A stretch of DNA of 37,063 bases from Escherichia phage T7. The DNA is taken from sequence record OL964749.1. One strand, given 5' to 3'. A program made the position numbers and the translations under genes. Positions 1-37,063 of the stretch are shown here, in pieces (the stretch's first letter is position 1; each line of letters begins with the position of its first letter). The notes beneath the pieces were generated by a model. The model had not been told where the DNA came from and did no database searches. It was given only the letters and a program-made list of their open reading frames with translations.

Positions 1-150
1 CTCACAGTGTACGGACCTAAAGTTCCCCCATAGGGGTACCTAAAGCCCAGCCAATCACCTAAAGTCAATGACCTTGAGGGTTCCCTAAGGGTTGGGGATG
101 ACCCTTGGGTTTGTCTTTGGGTGTTACCTTGAGTGTCTCTCTGTGTCCCT
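1..150. repeat. Left terminal direct repeat (TR) of a T7-type genome; identical copy at the right end
   Basis: Bases 1-150 recur exactly at 36914-37063; sequence matches the T7 terminal redundancy (CTCACAGTGTACGGACCTAAAG...). Confidence 0.95.
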
Positions 151-345
151 ACCTGTTACAGTCTCCTAAAGTATCCTCCTAAAGTATCCTCCTAAAGTCA
201 CCTCCTAACGTCCATCCTAAAGCCAACACCTAAAGACCCATCAAGTCAACGCCTATCTTAAAGTTTAAACATAAAGACCAGACCTAAAGACCAGACCTAA
301 AGACACTACATAAAGACCAGACCTAAAGACGCCTTGTTGTTAGCC
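151..345. repeat. Left-end array of short CCTAAAG-containing repeats (concatemer junction region)
   Basis: Repeated 12-13 bp units such as CCTAAAGTATCCT (165-177 and 178-190), CCTAAAGTCACCT, CCTAAAGACCAGA, as in the T7 left end. Confidence 0.8.
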
Positions 346-366
346 ATAAAGTGATAACCTTTAATC

Positions 367-431
367 ATTGTCTTTATTAATACAACTCATTGTCTTTATT
401 AATATAATCATTGTCTTTATTAATACAACTC
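367..431 (+). repeat. Tandem triplication of a 21-22 bp unit (ATTGTCTTTATTAATACAACTC) spanning the upstream half of promoter phiOL
   Basis: Copies at 367-388, 389-409 (variant AATATAATC) and 410-431; only the third is followed by CACTATAAGGAGAG. Confidence 0.85.
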
Positions 432-443
432 ACTATAAGGAGA
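421..443 (+). promoter_or_regulatory. T7 RNA polymerase promoter phiOL (left-end replication/packaging-associated promoter)
   Basis: TAATACAACTCACTATAAGGAGAG matches the T7 promoter consensus over -17 to +6 except two positions; predicted +1 near 438. Confidence 0.8.
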
Positions 444-494
444 GACAACTTAAAGAGACTTAAAAGATTAATTTAAAATTTATCAAAAAGAGTA

Positions 495-531
495 TTGACT
501 TAAAGTCTAACCTATAGGATACTTACAGCCA
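495..531 (+). promoter_or_regulatory. Strong early sigma70 promoter A1
   Basis: -35 TTGACT (495-500), 17-bp spacer, -10 GATACT (518-523), start near 531; matches the known T7 A1 sequence. Confidence 0.85.
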
Positions 532-642
532 TCGAGAGGGACACGGCGAATAGCCATCCCAATCGACACCGGGGTCAACCGGGCGCACAGTGCCTTCTAG
601 GTGACTTAAGCGCACCACGGCACATAAGGTGAAACAAAACGG

Positions 643-679
643 TTGACAACATGAAGTAAACACGGTACGATGTACCACA
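643..679 (+). promoter_or_regulatory. Early sigma70 promoter A3
   Basis: -35 TTGACA (643-648), 17-bp spacer, -10 TACGAT (666-671); matches T7 A3. The A2 promoter expected between A1 and A3 is absent. Confidence 0.85.
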
Positions 680-789
680 TGAAACGACAGTGAGTCACCA
701 CACTGAAAGGTGATGCGGTCTAACGAAACCTGACCTAAGACGCTCTTTAACAATCTGGTAAATAGCTCTTGAGTGCATGACTAGCGGAT

Positions 790-830
790 AACTCAAGGGT
801 ATCGCAAGGTGCCCTTTATGATATTCACTA
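790..830 (+). promoter_or_regulatory. RNase III processing hairpin R0.3
   Basis: Inverted repeat AAGGGTATCGCAAGGTGCCCTT just upstream of the ocr start, typical of T7 RNase III sites. Confidence 0.55.
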
Positions 831-853
831 ATAACTGCACGAGGTAACACAAG

Positions 854-1549
854 ATGGCTATGTCTAACATGACTTACAACAACGTTTTCGACCACGCTTA
901 CGAAATGCTGAAAGAAAACATCCGTTATGATGACATCCGTGACACTGATGACCTGCACGATGCTATTCACATGGCTGCCGATAATGCAGTTCCGCACTAC
1001 TACGCTGACATCTTTAGCGTAATGGCAAGTGAGGGCATTGACCTTGAGTTCGAAGACTCTGATCTGATGCCTGACACCAAGGACGTAATCCGCATCCTGC
1101 AAGCGCGTATCTATGAGCAATTAACGATTGACCTCTGGGAAGACGCAGAAGACTTGCTCAATGAATACTTGGAGGAAGTCGAGGAAGTCGCACGACAGAA
1201 AGAAATTGACCGCGCTAAGGCCCGTAAAGAACGTCACGAGGGGCGCTTAGAGGCACGCAGATTCAAACGTCGCAACCGCAAGGCACGTAAAGCACACAAA
1301 GCTAAGCGCGAAAGAATGCTTGCTGCGTGGCGATGGGCTGAACGTCAAGAACGGCGTAACCATGAGGTAGCTGTAGATGTACTAGGAAGAACCAATAACG
1401 CTATGCTCCGGGTCAACATGTCCTCTGGGGACTTTAAGGCGCTTGAGGAACGAATCGCGCTGCACTGGCGTAATGCTGACCGGATGGCTATCGCTAATGG
1501 TCTTACGCTCAACATTGATAAGCAACTTGACGCAATGTTAATGGGCTGA
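854..1549 (+). CDS. In-frame fusion: Ocr (gene 0.3 anti-restriction DNA mimic, residues 1 to about 111) joined to the C-terminal roughly 120 aa of gp0.7 (host transcription shut-off domain); kinase domain absent
   Basis: 231-aa ORF; N-terminus [19 protein letters not shown]...[10 protein letters not shown] equals T7 Ocr, then a basic Arg/Lys-rich tail ending 71 bp before gene 1, as gene 0.7 does in T7. Confidence 0.85.
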
Positions 1550-1552
1550 TAG

Positions 1553-1612
1553 TCTTATCTTACAGGTCATCTGCGGGTGGCCTGAATAGGTACGATTTAC
1601 TAACTGGAAGAG
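1553..1612 (+). promoter_or_regulatory. RNase III site R1 upstream of gene 1
   Basis: Hairpin CAGGTCATCTGCGGGTGGCCTG between the fusion ORF stop and the gene 1 start. Confidence 0.6.
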
Positions 1613-1619
1613 GCACTAA

Positions 1620-4271
1620 ATGAACACGATTAACATCGCTAAGAACGACTTCTCTGACATCGAACTGGCTGCTATCCCGTTCAACACTCTGGCTGACCAT
1701 TACGGTGAGCGTTTAGCTCGCGAACAGTTGGCCCTTGAGCATGAGTCTTACGAGATGGGTGAAGCACGCTTCCGCAAGATGTTTGAGCGTCAACTTAAAG
1801 CTGGTGAGGTTGCGGATAACGCTGCCGCCAAGCCTCTCATCACTACCCTACTCCCTAAGATGATTGCACGCATCAACGACTGGTTTGAGGAAGTGAAAGC
1901 TAAGCGCGGCAAGCGCCAGACAGCCTTCCAGTTCCTGCAAGAAATCAAGCCGGAAGCCGTAGCGTACATCACCATTAAGACCACTCTGGCTTGCCTAACC
2001 AGTGCTGACAATACAACCGTTCAGGCTGTAGCAAGCGCAATCGGTCGGGCCATTGAGGACGAGGCTCGCTTCGGTCGTATCCGTGACCTTGAAGCTAAGC
2101 ACTTCAAGAAAAACGTTGAGGAACAACTCAACAAGCGCGTAGGGCACGTCTACAAGAAAGCATTTATGCGAGTTGTCGAGGCTGACATGCTCTCTAAGGG
2201 TCTACTCGGTGGCGAGGCGTGGTCTTCGTGGCATAAGGAAGACTCTATTCATGTAGGAGTACGCTGCATCGAGATGCTCATTGAGTCAACCGGAATGGTT
2301 AGCTTACACCGCCAAAATGCTGGCGTAGTAGGTCAAGACTCTGAGACTATCGAACTCGCACCTGAATACGCTGAGGCTATCGCAACCCGTGCAGGTGCGC
2401 TGGCTGGCATCTCTCCGATGTTCCAACCTTGCGTAGTTCCTCCTAAGCCGTGGACTGGCATTACTGGTGGTGGCTATTGGGCTAACGGTCGTCGTCCTCT
2501 GGCGCTGGTGCGTACTCACAGTAAGAAAGCACTGATGCGCTACGAAGACGTTTACATGCCTGAGGTGTACAAAGCGATTAACATTGCGCAAAACACCGCA
2601 TGGAAAATCAACAAGAAAGTCCTAGCGGTCGCCAACGTAATCACCAAGTGGAAGCATTGTCCGGTCGAGGACATCCCTGCGATTGAGCATGAAGAACTCC
2701 CGATGAAACCGGAAGACATCGACATGAATCCTGAGGCTCTCACCGCGTGGAAACGTGCTGCCGCTGCTGTGTACCGCAAGGACAAGGCTCGCAAGTCTCG
2801 CCGTATCAGCCTTGAGTTCATGCTTGAGCAAGCCAATAAGTTTGCTAACCATAAGGCCATCTGGTTCCCTTACAACATGGACTGGCGCGGTCGTGTTTAC
2901 GCTGTGTCAATGTTCAACCCGCAAGGTAACGATATGACCAAAGGACTGCTTACGCTGGCGAAAGGTAAACCAATCGGTAAGGAAGGTTACTACTGGCTGA
3001 AAATCCACGGTGCAAACTGTGCGGGTGTCGATAAGGTTCCGTTCCCTGATCGCATCAAGTTCATTGAGGAAAACCACGAGAACATCATGGCTTGCGCTAA
3101 GTCTCCACTGGAGAACACTTGGTGGGCTGAGCAAGATTCTCCGTTCTGCTTCCTTGCGTTCTGCTTTGAGTACGCTGGGGTACAGCACCACGGCCTGAGC
3201 TATAACTGCTCCCTTCCGCTGGCGTTTGACGGGTCTTGCTCTGGCATCCAGCACTTCTCCGCGATGCTCCGAGATGAGGTAGGTGGTCGCGCGGTTAACT
3301 TGCTTCCTAGTGAAACCGTTCAGGACATCTACGGGATTGTTGCTAAGAAAGTCAACGAGATTCTACAAGCAGACGCAATCAATGGGACCGATAACGAAGT
3401 AGTTACCGTGACCGATGAGAACACTGGTGAAATCTCTGAGAAAGTCAAGCTGGGCACTAAGGCACTGGCTGGTCAATGGCTGGCTTACGGTGTTACTCGC
3501 AGTGTGACTAAGCGTTCAGTCATGACGCTGGCTTACGGGTCCAAAGAGTTCGGCTTCCGTCAACAAGTGCTGGAAGATACCATTCAGCCAGCTATTGATT
3601 CCGGCAAGGGTCTGATGTTCACTCAGCCGAATCAGGCTGCTGGATACATGGCTAAGCTGATTTGGGAATCTGTGAGCGTGACGGTGGTAGCTGCGGTTGA
3701 AGCAATGAACTGGCTTAAGTCTGCTGCTAAGCTGCTGGCTGCTGAGGTCAAAGATAAGAAGACTGGAGAGATTCTTCGCAAGCGTTGCGCTGTGCATTGG
3801 GTAACTCCTGATGGTTTCCCTGTGTGGCAGGAATACAAGAAGCCTATTCAGACGCGCTTGAACCTGATGTTCCTCGGTCAGTTCCGCTTACAGCCTACCA
3901 TTAACACCAACAAAGATAGCGAGATTGATGCACACAAACAGGAGTCTGGTATCGCTCCTAACTTTGTACACAGCCAAGACGGTAGCCACCTTCGTAAGAC
4001 TGTAGTGTGGGCACACGAGAAGTACGGAATCGAATCTTTTGCACTGATTCACGACTCCTTCGGTACCATTCCGGCTGACGCTGCGAACCTGTTCAAAGCA
4101 GTGCGCGAAACTATGGTTGACACATATGAGTCTTGTGATGTACTGGCTGATTTCTACGACCAGTTCGCTGACCAGTTGCACGAGTCTCAATTGGACAAAA
4201 TGCCAGCACTTCCGGCTAAAGGTAACTTGAACCTCCGTGACATCTTAGAGTCGGACTTCGCGTTCGCGTAA
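1620..4271 (+). CDS. T7 RNA polymerase (gene 1), single-subunit DNA-dependent RNA polymerase
   Basis: 883-aa ORF, MNTINIAKNDFSDIELAAIPFNTLADHYG...ESDFAFA, essentially identical to T7 RNAP. Confidence 0.98.
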   Translation: MNTINIAKNDFSDIELAAIPFNTLADHYGERLAREQLALEHESYEMGEARFRKMFERQLKAGEVADNAAAKPLITTLLPKMIARINDWFEEVKAKRGKRQTAFQFLQEIKPEAVAYITIKTTLACLTSADNTTVQAVASAIGRAIEDEARFGRIRDLEAKHFKKNVEEQLNKRVGHVYKKAFMRVVEADMLSKGLLGGEAWSSWHKEDSIHVGVRCIEMLIESTGMVSLHRQNAGVVGQDSETIELAPEYAEAIATRAGALAGISPMFQPCVVPPKPWTGITGGGYWANGRRPLALVRTHSKKALMRYEDVYMPEVYKAINIAQNTAWKINKKVLAVANVITKWKHCPVEDIPAIEHEELPMKPEDIDMNPEALTAWKRAAAAVYRKDKARKSRRISLEFMLEQANKFANHKAIWFPYNMDWRGRVYAVSMFNPQGNDMTKGLLTLAKGKPIGKEGYYWLKIHGANCAGVDKVPFPDRIKFIEENHENIMACAKSPLENTWWAEQDSPFCFLAFCFEYAGVQHHGLSYNCSLPLAFDGSCSGIQHFSAMLRDEVGGRAVNLLPSETVQDIYGIVAKKVNEILQADAINGTDNEVVTVTDENTGEISEKVKLGTKALAGQWLAYGVTRSVTKRSVMTLAYGSKEFGFRQQVLEDTIQPAIDSGKGLMFTQPNQAAGYMAKLIWESVSVTVVAAVEAMNWLKSAAKLLAAEVKDKKTGEILRKRCAVHWVTPDGFPVWQEYKKPIQTRLNLMFLGQFRLQPTINTNKDSEIDAHKQESGIAPNFVHSQDGSHLRKTVVWAHEKYGIESFALIHDSFGTIPADAANLFKAVRETMVDTYESCDVLADFYDQFADQLHESQLDKMPALPAKGNLNLRDILESDFAFA

Positions 4272-7350: not shown

Positions 7351-8049
7351 ATGGCTAAGAAGATTTTCACCTCTGCGCTGGGTACCGCTGAACCTTACGC
7401 TTACATCGCCAAGCCGGACTACGGCAACGAAGAGCGTGGCTTTGGGAACCCTCGTGGTGTCTATAAAGTTGACCTGACTATTCCCAACAAAGACCCGCGC
7501 TGCCAGCGTATGGTCGATGAAATCGTGAAGTGTCACGAAGAGGCTTATGCTGCTGCCGTTGAGGAATACGAAGCTAATCCACCTGCTGTAGCTCGTGGTA
7601 AGAAACCGCTGAAACCGTATGAGGGTGACATGCCGTTCTTCGATAACGGTGACGGTACGACTACCTTTAAGTTCAAATGCTACGCGTCTTTCCAAGACAA
7701 GAAGACCAAAGAGACCAAGCACATCAATCTTGTTGTGGTTGACTCAAAAGGTAAGAAGATGGAAGACGTTCCGATTATCGGTGGTGGCTCTAAGCTGAAA
7801 GTTAAATATTCTCTGGTTCCATACAAGTGGAACACTGCTGTAGGTGCGAGCGTTAAGCTGCAACTGGAATCCGTGATGCTGGTCGAACTGGCTACCTTTG
7901 GTGGCGGTGAAGACGATTGGGCTGACGAAGTTGAAGAGAACGGCTATGTTGCCTCTGGTTCTGCCAAAGCGAGCAAACCACGCGACGAAGAAAGCTGGGA
8001 CGAAGACGACGAAGAGTCCGAGGAAGCAGACGAAGACGGAGACTTCTAA
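7351..8049 (+). CDS. Single-stranded DNA-binding protein gp2.5
   Basis: 232-aa ORF MAKKIFTSALGTAEPYAYIAKPDYGNEERGFGNPRGVYKVDLTIPN... with acidic C-terminal tail ending ...EADEDGDF. Confidence 0.95.
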   Translation: MAKKIFTSALGTAEPYAYIAKPDYGNEERGFGNPRGVYKVDLTIPNKDPRCQRMVDEIVKCHEEAYAAAVEEYEANPPAVARGKKPLKPYEGDMPFFDNGDGTTTFKFKCYASFQDKKTKETKHINLVVVDSKGKKMEDVPIIGGGSKLKVKYSLVPYKWNTAVGASVKLQLESVMLVELATFGGGEDDWADEVEENGYVASGSAKASKPRDEESWDEDDEESEEADEDGDF

Positions 8050-8469
8050 GTGGAACTGCGGGAGAAAATCCTTGAGCGAATCAAGGTGACTTCCTCTGGG
8101 TGTTGGGAGTGGCAGGGCGCTACGAACAATAAAGGGTACGGGCAGGTGTGGTGCAGCAATACCGGAAAGGTTGTCTACTGTCATCGCGTAATGTCTAATG
8201 CTCCGAAAGGTTCTACCGTCCTGCACTCCTGTGATAATCCATTATGTTGTAACCCTGAACACCTATCCATAGGAACTCCAAAAGAGAACTCCACTGACAT
8301 GGTAAATAAGGGTCGCTCACACAAGGGGTATAAACTTTCAGACGAAGACGTAATGGCAATCATGGAGTCCAGCGAGTCCAATGTATCCTTAGCTCGCACC
8401 TATGGTGTCTCCCAACAGACTATTTGTGATATACGCAAATGGAGGCGACATGGCAGGTTACGGCGCTAA
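8050..8469 (+). CDS. Gene 2.8 protein (139 aa), HNH-type endonuclease-like
   Basis: ORF starting at GTG directly after the 2.5 stop; contains CHRVMSNAPKGSTVLHSCDNPLCCNPEHL, an HNH-like Cys/His motif. Confidence 0.7.
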   Translation: MELREKILERIKVTSSGCWEWQGATNNKGYGQVWCSNTGKVVYCHRVMSNAPKGSTVLHSCDNPLCCNPEHLSIGTPKENSTDMVNKGRSHKGYKLSDEDVMAIMESSESNVSLARTYGVSQQTICDIRKWRRHGRLRR

Positions 8470-9355: not shown

Positions 9356-9377
9356 TAATTGAACTCACTAAAGGGAG

Positions 9378-9378
<1 letters not shown>
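9356..9378 (+). promoter_or_regulatory. T7 promoter phi3.8
   Basis: TAATTGAACTCACTAAAGGGAGA; +1 near 9373. Confidence 0.85.
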
Positions 9379-12068: not shown

Positions 12069-14183
12069 ATGATCGTTTCTGACATCGAAGCTAACGCCCT
12101 CTTAGAGAGCGTCACTAAGTTCCACTGCGGGGTTATCTACGACTACTCCACCGCTGAGTACGTAAGCTACCGTCCGAGTGACTTCGGTGCGTATCTGGAT
12201 GCGCTGGAAGCCGAGGTTGCACGAGGCGGTCTTATTGTGTTCCACAACGGTCACAAGTATGACGTTCCTGCATTGACCAAACTGGCAAAGTTGCAATTGA
12301 ACCGAGAGTTCCACCTTCCTCGTGAGAACTGTATTGACACCCTTGTGTTGTCACGTTTGATTCATTCCAACCTCAAGGACACCGATATGGGTCTTCTGCG
12401 TTCCGGCAAGTTGCCCGGAAAACGCTTTGGGTCTCACGCTTTGGAGGCGTGGGGTTATCGCTTAGGCGAGATGAAGGGTGAATACAAAGACGACTTTAAG
12501 CGTATGCTTGAAGAGCAGGGTGAAGAATACGTTGACGGAATGGAGTGGTGGAACTTCAACGAAGAGATGATGGACTATAACGTTCAGGACGTTGTGGTAA
12601 CTAAAGCTCTCCTTGAGAAGCTACTCTCTGACAAACATTACTTCCCTCCTGAGATTGACTTTACGGACGTAGGATACACTACGTTCTGGTCAGAATCCCT
12701 TGAGGCCGTTGACATTGAACATCGTGCTGCATGGCTGCTCGCTAAACAAGAGCGCAACGGGTTCCCGTTTGACACAAAAGCAATCGAAGAGTTGTACGTA
12801 GAGTTAGCTGCTCGCCGCTCTGAGTTGCTCCGTAAATTGACCGAAACGTTCGGCTCGTGGTATCAGCCTAAAGGTGGCACTGAGATGTTCTGCCATCCGC
12901 GAACAGGTAAGCCACTACCTAAATACCCTCGCATTAAGACACCTAAAGTTGGTGGTATCTTTAAGAAGCCTAAGAACAAGGCACAGCGAGAAGGCCGTGA
13001 GCCTTGCGAACTTGATACCCGCGAGTACGTTGCTGGTGCTCCTTACACCCCAGTTGAACATGTTGTGTTTAACCCTTCGTCTCGTGACCACATTCAGAAG
13101 AAACTCCAAGAGGCTGGGTGGGTCCCGACCAAGTACACCGATAAGGGTGCTCCTGTGGTGGACGATGAGGTACTCGAAGGAGTACGTGTAGATGACCCTG
13201 AGAAGCAAGCCGCTATCGACCTCATTAAAGAGTACTTGATGATTCAGAAGCGAATCGGACAGTCTGCTGAGGGAGACAAAGCATGGCTTCGTTATGTTGC
13301 TGAGGATGGTAAGATTCATGGTTCTGTTAACCCTAATGGAGCAGTTACGGGTCGTGCGACCCATGCGTTCCCAAACCTTGCGCAAATTCCGGGTGTACGT
13401 TCTCCTTATGGAGAGCAGTGTCGCGCTGCTTTTGGCGCTGAGCACCATTTGGATGGGATAACTGGTAAGCCTTGGGTTCAGGCTGGCATCGACGCATCCG
13501 GTCTTGAGCTACGCTGCTTGGCTCACTTCATGGCTCGCTTTGATAACGGCGAGTACGCTCACGAGATTCTTAACGGCGACATCCACACTAAGAACCAGAT
13601 AGCTGCTGAACTACCTACCCGAGATAACGCTAAGACGTTCATCTATGGGTTCCTCTATGGTGCTGGTGATGAGAAGATTGGACAGATTGTTGGTGCTGGT
13701 AAAGAGCGCGGTAAGGAACTCAAGAAGAAATTCCTTGAGAACACCCCCGCGATTGCAGCACTCCGCGAGTCTATCCAACAGACACTTGTCGAGTCCTCTC
13801 AATGGGTAGCTGGTGAGCAACAAGTCAAGTGGAAACGCCGCTGGATTAAAGGTCTGGATGGTCGTAAGGTACACGTTCGTAGTCCTCACGCTGCCTTGAA
13901 TACCCTACTGCAATCTGCTGGTGCTCTCATCTGCAAACTGTGGATTATCAAGACCGAAGAGATGCTCGTAGAGAAAGGCTTGAAGCATGGCTGGGATGGG
14001 GACTTTGCGTACATGGCATGGGTACATGATGAAATCCAAGTAGGCTGCCGTACCGAAGAGATTGCTCAGGTGGTCATTGAGACCGCACAAGAAGCGATGC
14101 GCTGGGTTGGAGACCACTGGAACTTCCGGTGTCTTCTGGATACCGAAGGTAAGATGGGTCCTAATTGGGCGATTTGCCACTGA
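12069..14183 (+). CDS. DNA polymerase gp5 (family A, thioredoxin-binding, with 3'-5' exonuclease)
   Basis: 704-aa [39 protein letters not shown]... with exonuclease and polymerase motifs; matches T7 gp5. Confidence 0.98.
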
Positions 14184-14198
14184 TACAGGAGGCTACTC

Positions 14199-14402
14199 AT
14201 GAACGAAAGACACTTAACAGGTGCTGCTTCTGAAATGCTAGTAGCCTACAAATTTACCAAAGCTGGGTACACTGTCTATTACCCTATGCTGACTCAGAGT
14301 AAAGAGGACTTGGTTGTATGTAAGGATGGTAAATTTAGTAAGGTTCAGGTTAAAACATTGTGGTTGACGAAGATGTGCTTATTTTCACATGGGACGAAGT
14401 AA
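14199..14402 (+). CDS. Gene 5.3 (HNH endonuclease-like), frameshift-truncated to 67 aa against 118 aa in reference
   Basis: N-terminus MNERHLTGAASEMLVAYKFTKAGYTVYYPMLTQSKEDLVVCKDGKFSKVQVKT matches gp5.3, then a short out-of-frame tail; about 100 bp missing. Confidence 0.7.
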   Translation: MNERHLTGAASEMLVAYKFTKAGYTVYYPMLTQSKEDLVVCKDGKFSKVQVKTLWLTKMCLFSHGTK

Positions 14403-16479: not shown

Positions 16480-16746
16480 ATGTGTTTCTCACCGAAAATT
16501 AAAACTCCGAAGATGGATACCAATCAGATTCGAGCCGTTGAGCCAGCGCCTCTGACCCAAGAAGTGTCAAGCGTGGAGTTCGGTGGGTCTTCTGATGAGA
16601 CGGATACCGAGGGCACCGAAGTGTCTGGACGCAAAGGCCTCAAGGTCGAACGTGATGATTCCGTAGCGAAGTCTAAAGCCAGCGGCAATGGCTCCGCTCG
16701 TATGAAATCTTCCATCCGTAAGTCCGCATTTGGAGGTAAGAAGTGA
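16480..16746 (+). CDS. Gene 6.7 protein (88 aa, virion protein)
   Basis: ORF MCFSPKIKTPKMDTNQIRAVEPAPLTQEVSSVEFGG...; the track start at 16459 is an upstream extension. Confidence 0.8.
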   Translation: MCFSPKIKTPKMDTNQIRAVEPAPLTQEVSSVEFGGSSDETDTEGTEVSGRKGLKVERDDSVAKSKASGNGSARMKSSIRKSAFGGKK

Positions 16747-19184: not shown

Positions 19185-20108
19185 ATGGCTGAATCTAATG
19201 CAGACGTATATGCATCTTTTGGCGTGAACTCCGCTGTGATGTCTGGTGGTTCCGTTGAGGAACATGAGCAGAACATGCTGGCTCTTGATGTTGCTGCCCG
19301 TGATGGCGATGATGCAATCGAGTTAGCGTCAGACGAAGTGGAAACAGAACGTGACCTGTATGACAACTCTGACCCGTTCGGTCAAGAGGATGACGAAGGC
19401 CGCATTCAGGTTCGTATCGGTGATGGCTCTGAGCCGACCGATGTGGACACTGGAGAAGAAGGCGTTGAGGGCACCGAAGGTTCCGAAGAGTTTACCCCAC
19501 TGGGCGAGACTCCAGAAGAACTGGTAGCTGCCTCTGAGCAACTTGGTGAGCACGAAGAGGGCTTCCAAGAGATGATTAACATTGCTGCTGAGCGTGGCAT
19601 GAGTGTCGAGACCATTGAGGCTATCCAGCGTGAGTACGAGGAGAACGAAGAGTTGTCCGCCGAGTCCTACGCTAAGCTGGCTGAAATTGGCTACACGAAG
19701 GCTTTCATTGACTCGTATATCCGTGGTCAAGAAGCTCTGGTGGAGCAGTACGTAAACAGTGTCATTGAGTACGCTGGTGGTCGTGAACGTTTTGATGCAC
19801 TGTATAACCACCTTGAGACGCACAACCCTGAGGCTGCACAGTCGCTGGATAATGCGTTGACCAATCGTGACTTAGCGACCGTTAAGGCTATCATCAACTT
19901 GGCTGGTGAGTCTCGCGCTAAGGCGTTCGGTCGTAAGCCAACTCGTAGTGTGACTAATCGTGCTATTCCGGCTAAACCTCAGGCTACCAAGCGTGAAGGC
20001 TTTGCGGACCGTAGCGAGATGATTAAAGCTATGAGTGACCCTCGGTATCGCACAGATGCCAACTATCGTCGTCAAGTCGAACAGAAAGTAATCGATTCGA
20101 ACTTCTGA
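19185..20108 (+). CDS. Capsid assembly (scaffolding) protein gp9
   Basis: 307-aa acidic ORF MAESNADVYASFGVNSAVMSGGSVEEHEQNMLALD...; matches T7 gp9. Confidence 0.95.
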   Translation: MAESNADVYASFGVNSAVMSGGSVEEHEQNMLALDVAARDGDDAIELASDEVETERDLYDNSDPFGQEDDEGRIQVRIGDGSEPTDVDTGEEGVEGTEGSEEFTPLGETPEELVAASEQLGEHEEGFQEMINIAAERGMSVETIEAIQREYEENEELSAESYAKLAEIGYTKAFIDSYIRGQEALVEQYVNSVIEYAGGRERFDALYNHLETHNPEAAQSLDNALTNRDLATVKAIINLAGESRAKAFGRKPTRSVTNRAIPAKPQATKREGFADRSEMIKAMSDPRYRTDANYRRQVEQKVIDSNF

Positions 20109-20121
20109 TAGACTTCGAAAT

Positions 20122-20144
20122 TAATACGACTCACTATAGTGAGA
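20122..20144 (+). promoter_or_regulatory. T7 class III promoter phi10 carrying a G-to-T change at +2 (TATAGTGAGA instead of TATAGGGAGA)
   Basis: TAATACGACTCACTATAGTGAGACCACAACGGTTTCCCTCTAGAAATAATTTTGTTTAACTTTAAGAAGGAGATATACATATG; otherwise identical to the phi10 promoter and leader used in pET vectors. Confidence 0.9.
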
Positions 20145-20201
20145 CCACAACGGTTTCCCTCTAGAAATAATTTTGTTTAACTTTAAGAAGGAGATATACA
20201 T

Positions 20202-21239
20202 ATGGCTAGCATGACTGGTGGACAGCAAATGGGTACTAACCAAGGTAAAGGTGTAGTTGCTGCTGGAGATAAACTGGCGTTGTTCTTGAAGGTATTTGGC
20301 GGTGAAGTCCTGACTGCGTTCGCTCGTACCTCCGTGACCACTTCTCGCCACATGGTACGTTCCATCTCCAGCGGTAAATCCGCTCAGTTCCCTGTTCTGG
20401 GTCGCACTCAGGCAGCGTATCTGGCTCCGGGCGAGAACCTCGACGATAAACGTAAGGACATCAAACACACCGAGAAGGTAATCACCATTGACGGTCTCCT
20501 GACGGCTGACGTTCTGATTTATGATATTGAGGACGCGATGAACCACTACGACGTTCGCTCTGAGTATACCTCTCAGTTGGGTGAATCTCTGGCGATGGCT
20601 GCGGATGGTGCGGTTCTGGCTGAGATTGCCGGTCTGTGTAACGTGGAAAGCAAATATAATGAGAACATCGAGGGCTTAGGTACTGCTACCGTAATTGAGA
20701 CCACTCAGAACAAGGCCGCACTTACCGACCAAGTTGCGCTGGGTAAGGAGATTATTGCGGCTCTGACTAAGGCTCGTGCGGCTCTGACCAAGAACTATGT
20801 TCCGGCTGCTGACCGTGTGTTCTACTGTGACCCAGATAGCTACTCTGCGATTCTGGCAGCACTGATGCCGAACGCAGCAAACTACGCTGCTCTGATTGAC
20901 CCTGAGAAGGGTTCTATCCGCAACGTTATGGGCTTTGAGGTTGTAGAAGTTCCGCACCTCACCGCTGGTGGTGCTGGTACCGCTCGTGAGGGCACTACTG
21001 GTCAGAAGCACGTCTTCCCTGCCAATAAAGGTGAGGGTAATGTCAAGGTTGCTAAGGACAACGTTATCGGCCTGTTCATGCACCGCTCTGCGGTAGGTAC
21101 TGTTAAGCTGCGTGACTTGGCTCTGGAGCGCGCTCGCCGTGCTAACTTCCAAGCGGACCAGATTATCGCTAAGTACGCAATGGGCCACGGTGGTCTTCGC
21201 CCAGAAGCTGCTGGTGCAGTGGTTTTCAAAGTGGAGTAA
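20202..21239 (+). CDS. Major capsid protein gp10A
   Basis: 345-aa ORF MASMTGGQQMGTNQGKGVVAAGDKLALFLKVFGGEVLTAFARTSV...; identical to T7 gp10A including the T7-tag N-terminus. Confidence 0.98.
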   Translation: MASMTGGQQMGTNQGKGVVAAGDKLALFLKVFGGEVLTAFARTSVTTSRHMVRSISSGKSAQFPVLGRTQAAYLAPGENLDDKRKDIKHTEKVITIDGLLTADVLIYDIEDAMNHYDVRSEYTSQLGESLAMAADGAVLAEIAGLCNVESKYNENIEGLGTATVIETTQNKAALTDQVALGKEIIAALTKARAALTKNYVPAADRVFYCDPDSYSAILAALMPNAANYAALIDPEKGSIRNVMGFEVVEVPHLTAGGAGTAREGTTGQKHVFPANKGEGNVKVAKDNVIGLFMHRSAVGTVKLRDLALERARRANFQADQIIAKYAMGHGGLRPEAAGAVVFKVE

Positions 21240-36912: not shown

Positions 36913-37063
36913 TCTCACAGTGTACGGACCTAAAGTTCCCCCATAGGGGTACCTAAAGCCCAGCCAATCACCTAAAGTCAATGACCTTGAGGGTTCCCTA
37001 AGGGTTGGGGATGACCCTTGGGTTTGTCTTTGGGTGTTACCTTGAGTGTCTCTCTGTGTCCCT
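36913..37063. repeat. Right terminal direct repeat (TR)
   Basis: 36914-37063 is identical to 1-150; the preceding T at 36913 corresponds to the first TR base missing from the window start. Confidence 0.95.

Follow-up and report, generated by a model that had tools for sequence, protein, structure and literature searches.

The tandem strong A promoters of bacteriophage T7 serve E. coli RNA polymerase and drive early transcription and genome internalisation. We analyzed a T7 sequence of 37,063 nucleotides (OL964749.1), the whole of which is called the window here, in which one of these promoters, A2, seemed to be lacking. The initial annotation, made from the letters alone, held that A1 and A3 were both present and that a segment of roughly 104 bp carrying A2 had been deleted by recombination between 9-bp direct repeats. 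The locus raises three questions: whether A2 is really gone, how it was lost, and what its loss means for the phage.

By BLAST against the reference, the window was a complete T7 genome (37,063 bp) carrying many deletions. In a three-way MAFFT alignment covering window positions 340–900, the A1–A3 interval differed from the reference genome NC_001604 (positions marked ref) by one clean gap of 104 columns, so the estimate of roughly 104 bp was in fact exact. The flanks of the gap were 100% identical to NC_001604 from phiOL to the start of gene 0.3. The gap contained the whole of A2, with its −35 element at ref 589–594, its −10 element at ref 613–618 and its +1 position at ref 626, the last as annotated in NC_001604. 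A2 was thus absent between A1 and A3, as had been claimed. The following features were located around the junction:

Window 495–531, + strand: sigma-70 early promoter A1, found by the scan; corresponds to ref 462–498, annotated at ref 498.
Window 574–582, + strand: deletion scar, the sole surviving GTCAACCGG of the bracketing pair, found by alignment and microhomology computation.
Window 643–679, + strand: sigma-70 early promoter A3, found by the scan; corresponds to ref 714–750, annotated at ref 750.

Window positions 565–590 read GACACCGGGGTCAACCGGGCGCACAG, the letters that the initial annotation had quoted. The boundaries of the deletion could be slid by 9 bp, from ref 541–644 to ref 550–653, because the exact 9-bp direct repeat GTCAACCGG is present at ref 541 and ref 645. 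The motif predicted on either side of A2 was found in the reference, and a single copy was left at the junction. The spacing of the two copies (104, ref 541 to ref 645) equalled the length of the gap (104 bp), one repeat and 95 bp having been lost. Besides these two positions, GTCAACCGG occurred in the genome only at ref 3836. A repeat at both parental ends, one copy at the junction and a length equal to the spacing are the marks of a direct-repeat deletion, and all of them were observed. The junction rests on three assembled genomes. One clone from the same laboratory, T7_10L, has one A more in its A5 run (ref 577), which makes the gap 105 bp when measured against it; other clones of the series have exactly the reference sequence at this point.

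Both remaining promoters were intact. A1 has its −35 element TTGACT at 495–500, its −10 element GATACT at 518–523 and its start A at 531 (ATCGAGAGGG...). A3 has TTGACA at 643–648, TACGAT at 666–671 and its start A at 679 (ATGAAACGACAG...). The −35 and −10 elements were found in both, and both had the reference sequence base for base. A sigma-70 scan of the + strand of window 1–2000 returned exactly two sites, TTGACT-17-GATACT at 495–523 and TTGACA-17-TACGAT at 643–671, whereas the same scan of ref 400–1000 returned three, A1 (462–490), A2 (589–618) and A3 (714–742). This difference confirmed that one of the three early promoters had been removed. The distance from the A1 start to the A3 start was 148 bp in the window versus 252 bp in the reference.

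The window was also searched for A2 at other sites. No A2-like sequence was found elsewhere in it with up to 3 mismatches allowed, and the pattern TTGACA-N16-19-TAAGAT gave 0 matches in the window. Both searches ruled out that A2 had moved to another site, and the statement that no A2-like −35/−10 pair stands elsewhere held. A scan of the whole window at the Rfam gathering threshold detected 0 known RNA elements. The single-stranded DNA fold of ref 536–658 was unremarkable (z = −1.17), with a small hairpin adjoining the right repeat; the idea that secondary structure draws the repeats together thus received no support. A2 and A3 have in common a 17-bp exact repeat, TTGACAACATGAAGTAA, at ref 589–605 and ref 714–730, 125 bp apart. 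Recombination at this longer repeat would likewise cost one promoter, and it went unused. Taken together, the alignment and the scans supported the loss of A2 by deletion between 9-bp direct repeats as a real event of an ordinary, well-known kind.

The window is not a natural isolate but a genome-reduced laboratory T7 mutant made by CRISPR/Cas9 iterative phage genome reduction, CiPGr (Yuan et al. 2022, Nucleic Acids Res 50:13183, PMC9825161). It contained the signature 100-bp and whole-gene deletions of the series and matched deposited clones. The clone names in the accession block (T7_10L, T7_20L and others) agree with Yuan et al. 2022. In that method, two cassettes with 50-bp homology arms are used for each gene; cassette-100 cuts exactly 100 bp, and cassette-gene removes the whole gene (PMC9825161). 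Once the pooled mutant populations had gone through eight competitive transfers, three isolates, t1–t3, were taken from each library (PMC9825161).

The nearest public records were OL964748.1 (T7_1t1, 37,088 bp) and OL964750.1 (T7_1t3, 37,455 bp), and the window is very probably the third sibling of these two clones. A 43-nt query centred on the junction, in which neither half was long enough alone to seed a megablast match, had matches in OL964748 and OL964750 alone out of 50,697 phage records. Among the matches listed, the A2 segment was intact in dozens of other clones of the series and in all other T7 records. The near-wild-type T7_10L from the same laboratory also kept A2. Since these clones and T7_10L retain the promoter, the deletion arose within this laboratory lineage. 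Among the matches listed, T3, Yersinia phage Y, phage NC-A and others aligned through the A2 segment without a break, so the three-promoter arrangement appears from these alignments to be the conserved state among those matches. A natural polymorphism was ruled out on the same ground, as T3, Yersinia phage Y and NC-A span A2 among the matches listed.

T7_1t1 and T7_1t3 are the same as the window in the A2 junction, in a fusion of genes 0.3 and 0.7 (0.3::0.7) and in a tandem duplication next to phiOL, and the three genomes have designed 100-bp and gene deletions in common. OL964748 was 99.93–99.95% identical to the window over the aligned blocks. Compared with t1, the window has a 100-bp deletion in gene 5.3 and is without a 75-bp deletion between phi1.1A and phi1.1B; compared with t3, it has a deletion in gene 7.7 and one phiOL-proximal repeat unit fewer. 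About 20 SNPs separate the window from T7_1t1 and T7_1t3. Relative to NC_001604, the whole window carries about 43 substitutions; G>T and C>A changes make up roughly half of them (about 22). The substitutions are partly common to and partly different among the three siblings, a mosaic consistent with recombination in pooled populations. The main text of PMC9825161 does not mention the loss of A2, and the word 'promoter' occurs there only for the guide cassette and in the title of a reference. The A2-deleted allele is already present in two GenBank records, unannotated and undiscussed there.

Deletions in the window were classed by whole-genome alignment and computation of junction microhomology. 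Seven were classed as designed:

ref 7608–7763, window 6056/6057: 156 bp, exactly the gene 1.4 CDS; 0 bp microhomology.
ref 8163–8262, window 6455/6456: 100 bp; 0 bp microhomology.
ref 13340–13439, window 11255/11256: 100 bp; 3 bp microhomology.
ref 14172–14271, window 11987/11988: 100 bp; 0 bp microhomology.
ref 16642–16741, window 14357/14358: 100 bp; 0 bp microhomology.
ref 19848–20216, window 17451/17452: 369 bp, most of gene 7.7; 0 bp microhomology.
ref 39565–39664, window 36799/36800: 100 bp; 0 bp microhomology.

These seven deletions are scarless, five of them are exactly 100 bp long, and as a group they carry the hallmark of editing with designed CiPGr cassettes. The others were classed as unplanned, and one from a sibling was added to them:

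A2 region: 104 bp; 9 bp microhomology.
Genes 0.3–0.7: 1480 bp; 13 bp microhomology (AGGAAGTCGAGGA).
phi3.8/gene 3.8, window 9370–9378: 277 bp; 9 bp microhomology (AAAGGGAGA).
Gene 7.3, about window 17194: 12 bp, in-frame; 7 bp microhomology (CGTTAAG).
Sibling t1, from the 17-bp core of phi1.1A to that of phi1.1B: 75 bp; 17 bp microhomology.

Junction microhomology was 0–3 bp for the designed deletions (n = 7) and 7–13 bp for the unplanned deletions of the window (n = 4), or 7–17 bp with t1 included. With the designed deletions as an internal control, the 9 bp at the A2 junction are not a chance match. Together with the repeat structure itself, the low microhomology of the designed deletions supported the proposed recombination between 9-bp direct repeats. 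The A2 deletion also differs from a designed edit in other respects. It is 104 bp long and intergenic, and the authors' records contain no CDS there; their own records annotate no gene between A1 and gene 0.3. Because it is 104 rather than 100 bp long, lies outside genes where cassettes were made per gene, and carries 9 bp of microhomology, the A2 deletion was not designed. In the T7 genome, direct repeats of at least 9 bp whose copies lie within 300 bp form 108 pairs, and this lineage used three such pairs in dispensable DNA (A2, phi3.8/gene 3.8 and phi1.1A/B). The 277-bp loss runs from within promoter phi3.8 into gene 3.8.

Other changes were observed at the left end. In window 362–432, a 21/22-bp unit (…CATTGTCTTTATTAATA[C/T]AA…) is tandemly expanded directly upstream of the T7 promoter phiOL, and the expansion overlaps the 5' half of this promoter. 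Relative to the reference, the expansion adds 43 bp in the window, 42 bp in t1 and, with a further unit, 63 bp in t3. Every added unit contains another copy of the upstream half of phiOL (TAATACAAC or TAATATAAT), which we take to be the polymerase-binding half, without the initiation half. The expansion was found only in the two sibling records with the A2 deletion. The terminal repeat (window 1–240 and 36913–37063) is 9 bp shorter than in the reference at both ends, through a 1-bp and an 8-bp loss. In the left-end CCTAAAG repeat arrays, one 13-bp unit was gained and another was lost.

An in-frame 0.3::0.7 fusion ORF of 231 aa occupies window 854–1549, with its junction at 1173–1185. In this ORF, roughly 110 N-terminal residues of Ocr, altered by G70D, are followed by the C-terminal part of gp0.7. 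The fusion came from a 1480-bp deletion between 13-bp repeats (AGGAAGTCGAGGA, ref 1244/2724), which takes genes 0.4–0.6 and the 5' two-thirds of gene 0.7, presumably its kinase part. T7_20L (MZ375235) has the same 1480-bp deletion and so, judged by matching coordinates, does PV223881, a recombinant T7 from another laboratory. Their occurrence suggests either a recurrent hotspot or a shared backbone.

With the deletion, its repeat structure, its restriction to one lineage and its undesigned nature demonstrated, the most plausible account of its origin is a spontaneous event. Very probably, A2 was lost from a phage of the CiPGr lineage by deletion between the 9-bp repeats during passage, and the loss was tolerated through A1 and A3. 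Repeats are deleted by replication slippage or by exonuclease action plus annealing. In the long serial passage of this lineage, a deletion would have occurred spontaneously between the two GTCAACCGG copies at ref 541 and ref 645, probably by slippage during replication or by single-strand annealing through the T7 recombination machinery. It would have excised one repeat and the intervening 95 bp holding the complete A2. The phage would have survived on the untouched A1 and A3, which are equally strong tandem promoters for host RNA polymerase. These two would keep driving early transcription, and hence transcription-coupled genome entry and the expression of gene 1. Fixation would then have come by hitchhiking or, at most, weak selection, with no strong benefit. 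A counterpoint to the 9-bp route is the longer 17-bp A2/A3 repeat (ref 589/714), which would be expected to be more recombinogenic and was unused.

Precedents agree with a spontaneous origin. Deletions between direct repeats are classical in T7, according to the passage of PMC5630979 that cites Studier et al. 1979 and Kong & Masker 1994. The classical early-region deletions (Studier, Rosenberg, Simon & Dunn 1979) were likewise spontaneous, viable and formed at short direct repeats; they lie in the non-essential left 8% of T7 and lost redundant host-polymerase promoters with viability kept. The window allele differs from these mutants in that A2 alone was removed, in a different and smaller event (104 bp). 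Among the classical deletions, D111 is without A2 and A3 and was for a long time used as an A1-only template.

A Cas9 cut might also have started the deletion. A library guide, designed or off-target, would have cut in the A2 region, and the flanking 9-bp repeats would have annealed in the escaping phage. Four SpCas9 NGG protospacers would indeed cut between the repeats, and the phi3.8/gene 3.8 and 0.3–0.7 deletions resemble such escapes within targeted genes. The phi3.8/gene 3.8 deletion may itself be a Cas9 escape that annealed instead of using the supplied template. For A2, however, the cassettes were aimed at annotated genes only, and none is annotated in the stretch from A1 to gene 0.3. 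In addition, comparison with all 4,234 NGG protospacers of T7 gave none of the four a relative at 6 or fewer mismatches, so an off-target cut by a gene-directed guide is unlikely. A Cas9 origin of the A2 deletion is thus very improbable next to spontaneous loss. We give hardly any credence to the view that the gap is an artefact of assembly or sequencing, or that the parental stock never had A2. The 17-bp stretch identical in A2 and A3 might mislead short-read assembly, but the junction sits at the 9-bp repeat and not at the 17-bp one. Three separately assembled clones agree on the junction, and the same pipeline yielded dozens of clones with A2 in place. A parental stock without A2 is contradicted by T7_10L, which has A2 and comes from the same laboratory.

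A spontaneous deletion of A2 must also leave the phage viable, and A2 is already known to be dispensable. Promoters A1–A3 support early transcription by host polymerase and transcription-coupled entry of the T7 genome, and a constructed T7 ΔA2A3 mutant forms plaques (PMC13128918). When A0–A3 and genes 0.3–0.7 were swapped for one regulated promoter, the phage was viable with near-wild-type infectivity (bioRxiv 10.1101/2021.08.23.457391). MZ318362.1, a del-holin isolate (F10, 36,942 bp) of an independently evolved T7, has lost A2, A3 and genes 0.3–0.7 (about 593–945 in that record), and upstream of gene 1 only A1 and promoter C are left. Like the window, these three phages are viable after the loss of A promoters, and they show that one remaining sigma-70 promoter upstream of gene 1 suffices for plaques. 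The phages of PMC13128918 and bioRxiv 10.1101/2021.08.23.457391 are deliberate constructions, unlike the window, and the MZ318362 deletion, which starts at about ref 593 and ends upstream of promoter C, is much larger than that of the window. Because A1 and A3 are unchanged, early-promoter function in the window is retained through redundancy.

The remaining question is whether the loss of A2 was favoured. The deletion would be adaptive if it had been positively selected during passaging or competition, through a shorter leader, less promoter interference, early transcription retuned in the 0.3::0.7 background, or synergy with the phiOL-proximal duplication. We consider this reading unlikely. 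It draws on the fact that the window, t1 and t3 are mosaic in gene 7.7, gene 5.3, phi1.1A/B and many SNPs, yet all three are A2-deleted, and on the fact that no other sequenced clone of the series in the collection carries the deletion. That all three competition winners lack A2 could mean that selection acted on the left-end haplotype, or on the A2 deletion itself, which would then not be neutral. However, the A2 deletion is completely linked to the private phiOL duplication and to the 0.3–0.7 deletion. Because of this complete linkage to other private left-end changes, hitchhiking explains the three-of-three pattern equally well.

The size of any benefit also bears on selection. Host polymerase transcribes about 40–50 nt/s, and a template shortened by 104 bp would save only about 2 s. 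No independent parallel origin of the A2 junction was found among the 50,697 phage records, which also speaks against an adaptive role. The fitness data point both ways: the best clone of the trio kills in a 10% shorter time, but it is outcompeted by wild type (18.75% after four transfers), and its fitness lies 0.9 doublings/h below that of wild type (PMC9825161). A real adaptive role for the A2 deletion is, on this evidence, rather improbable. A more specific proposal is that the deletion, alone or with the phiOL-proximal duplication, is compensatory and retunes both early transcription by host polymerase and genome entry in a genome with an early region shortened by 1.5 kb; this we regard as distinctly doubtful. 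Spontaneous loss followed by hitchhiking or weak selection at most therefore stays the preferred reading.

The finding carries little weight beyond bookkeeping: among the losses of this published genome-reduced T7 lineage is a regulatory element, which the gene-centred paper leaves undiscussed. Those who use these clones, or who read their fitness and killing curves, should take them as phages with two early promoters, not three, and a remodelled phiOL region. This one genome also illustrates cleanly that junction microhomology parts designed deletions (0–3 bp) from spontaneous ones (7–17 bp, sibling t1 included). If the loss of A2 were adaptive, it would offer a modest lesson on promoter redundancy in T7 early transcription. 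If the compensatory reading were true, the conserved three-promoter arrangement would not be optimal in every genomic context.
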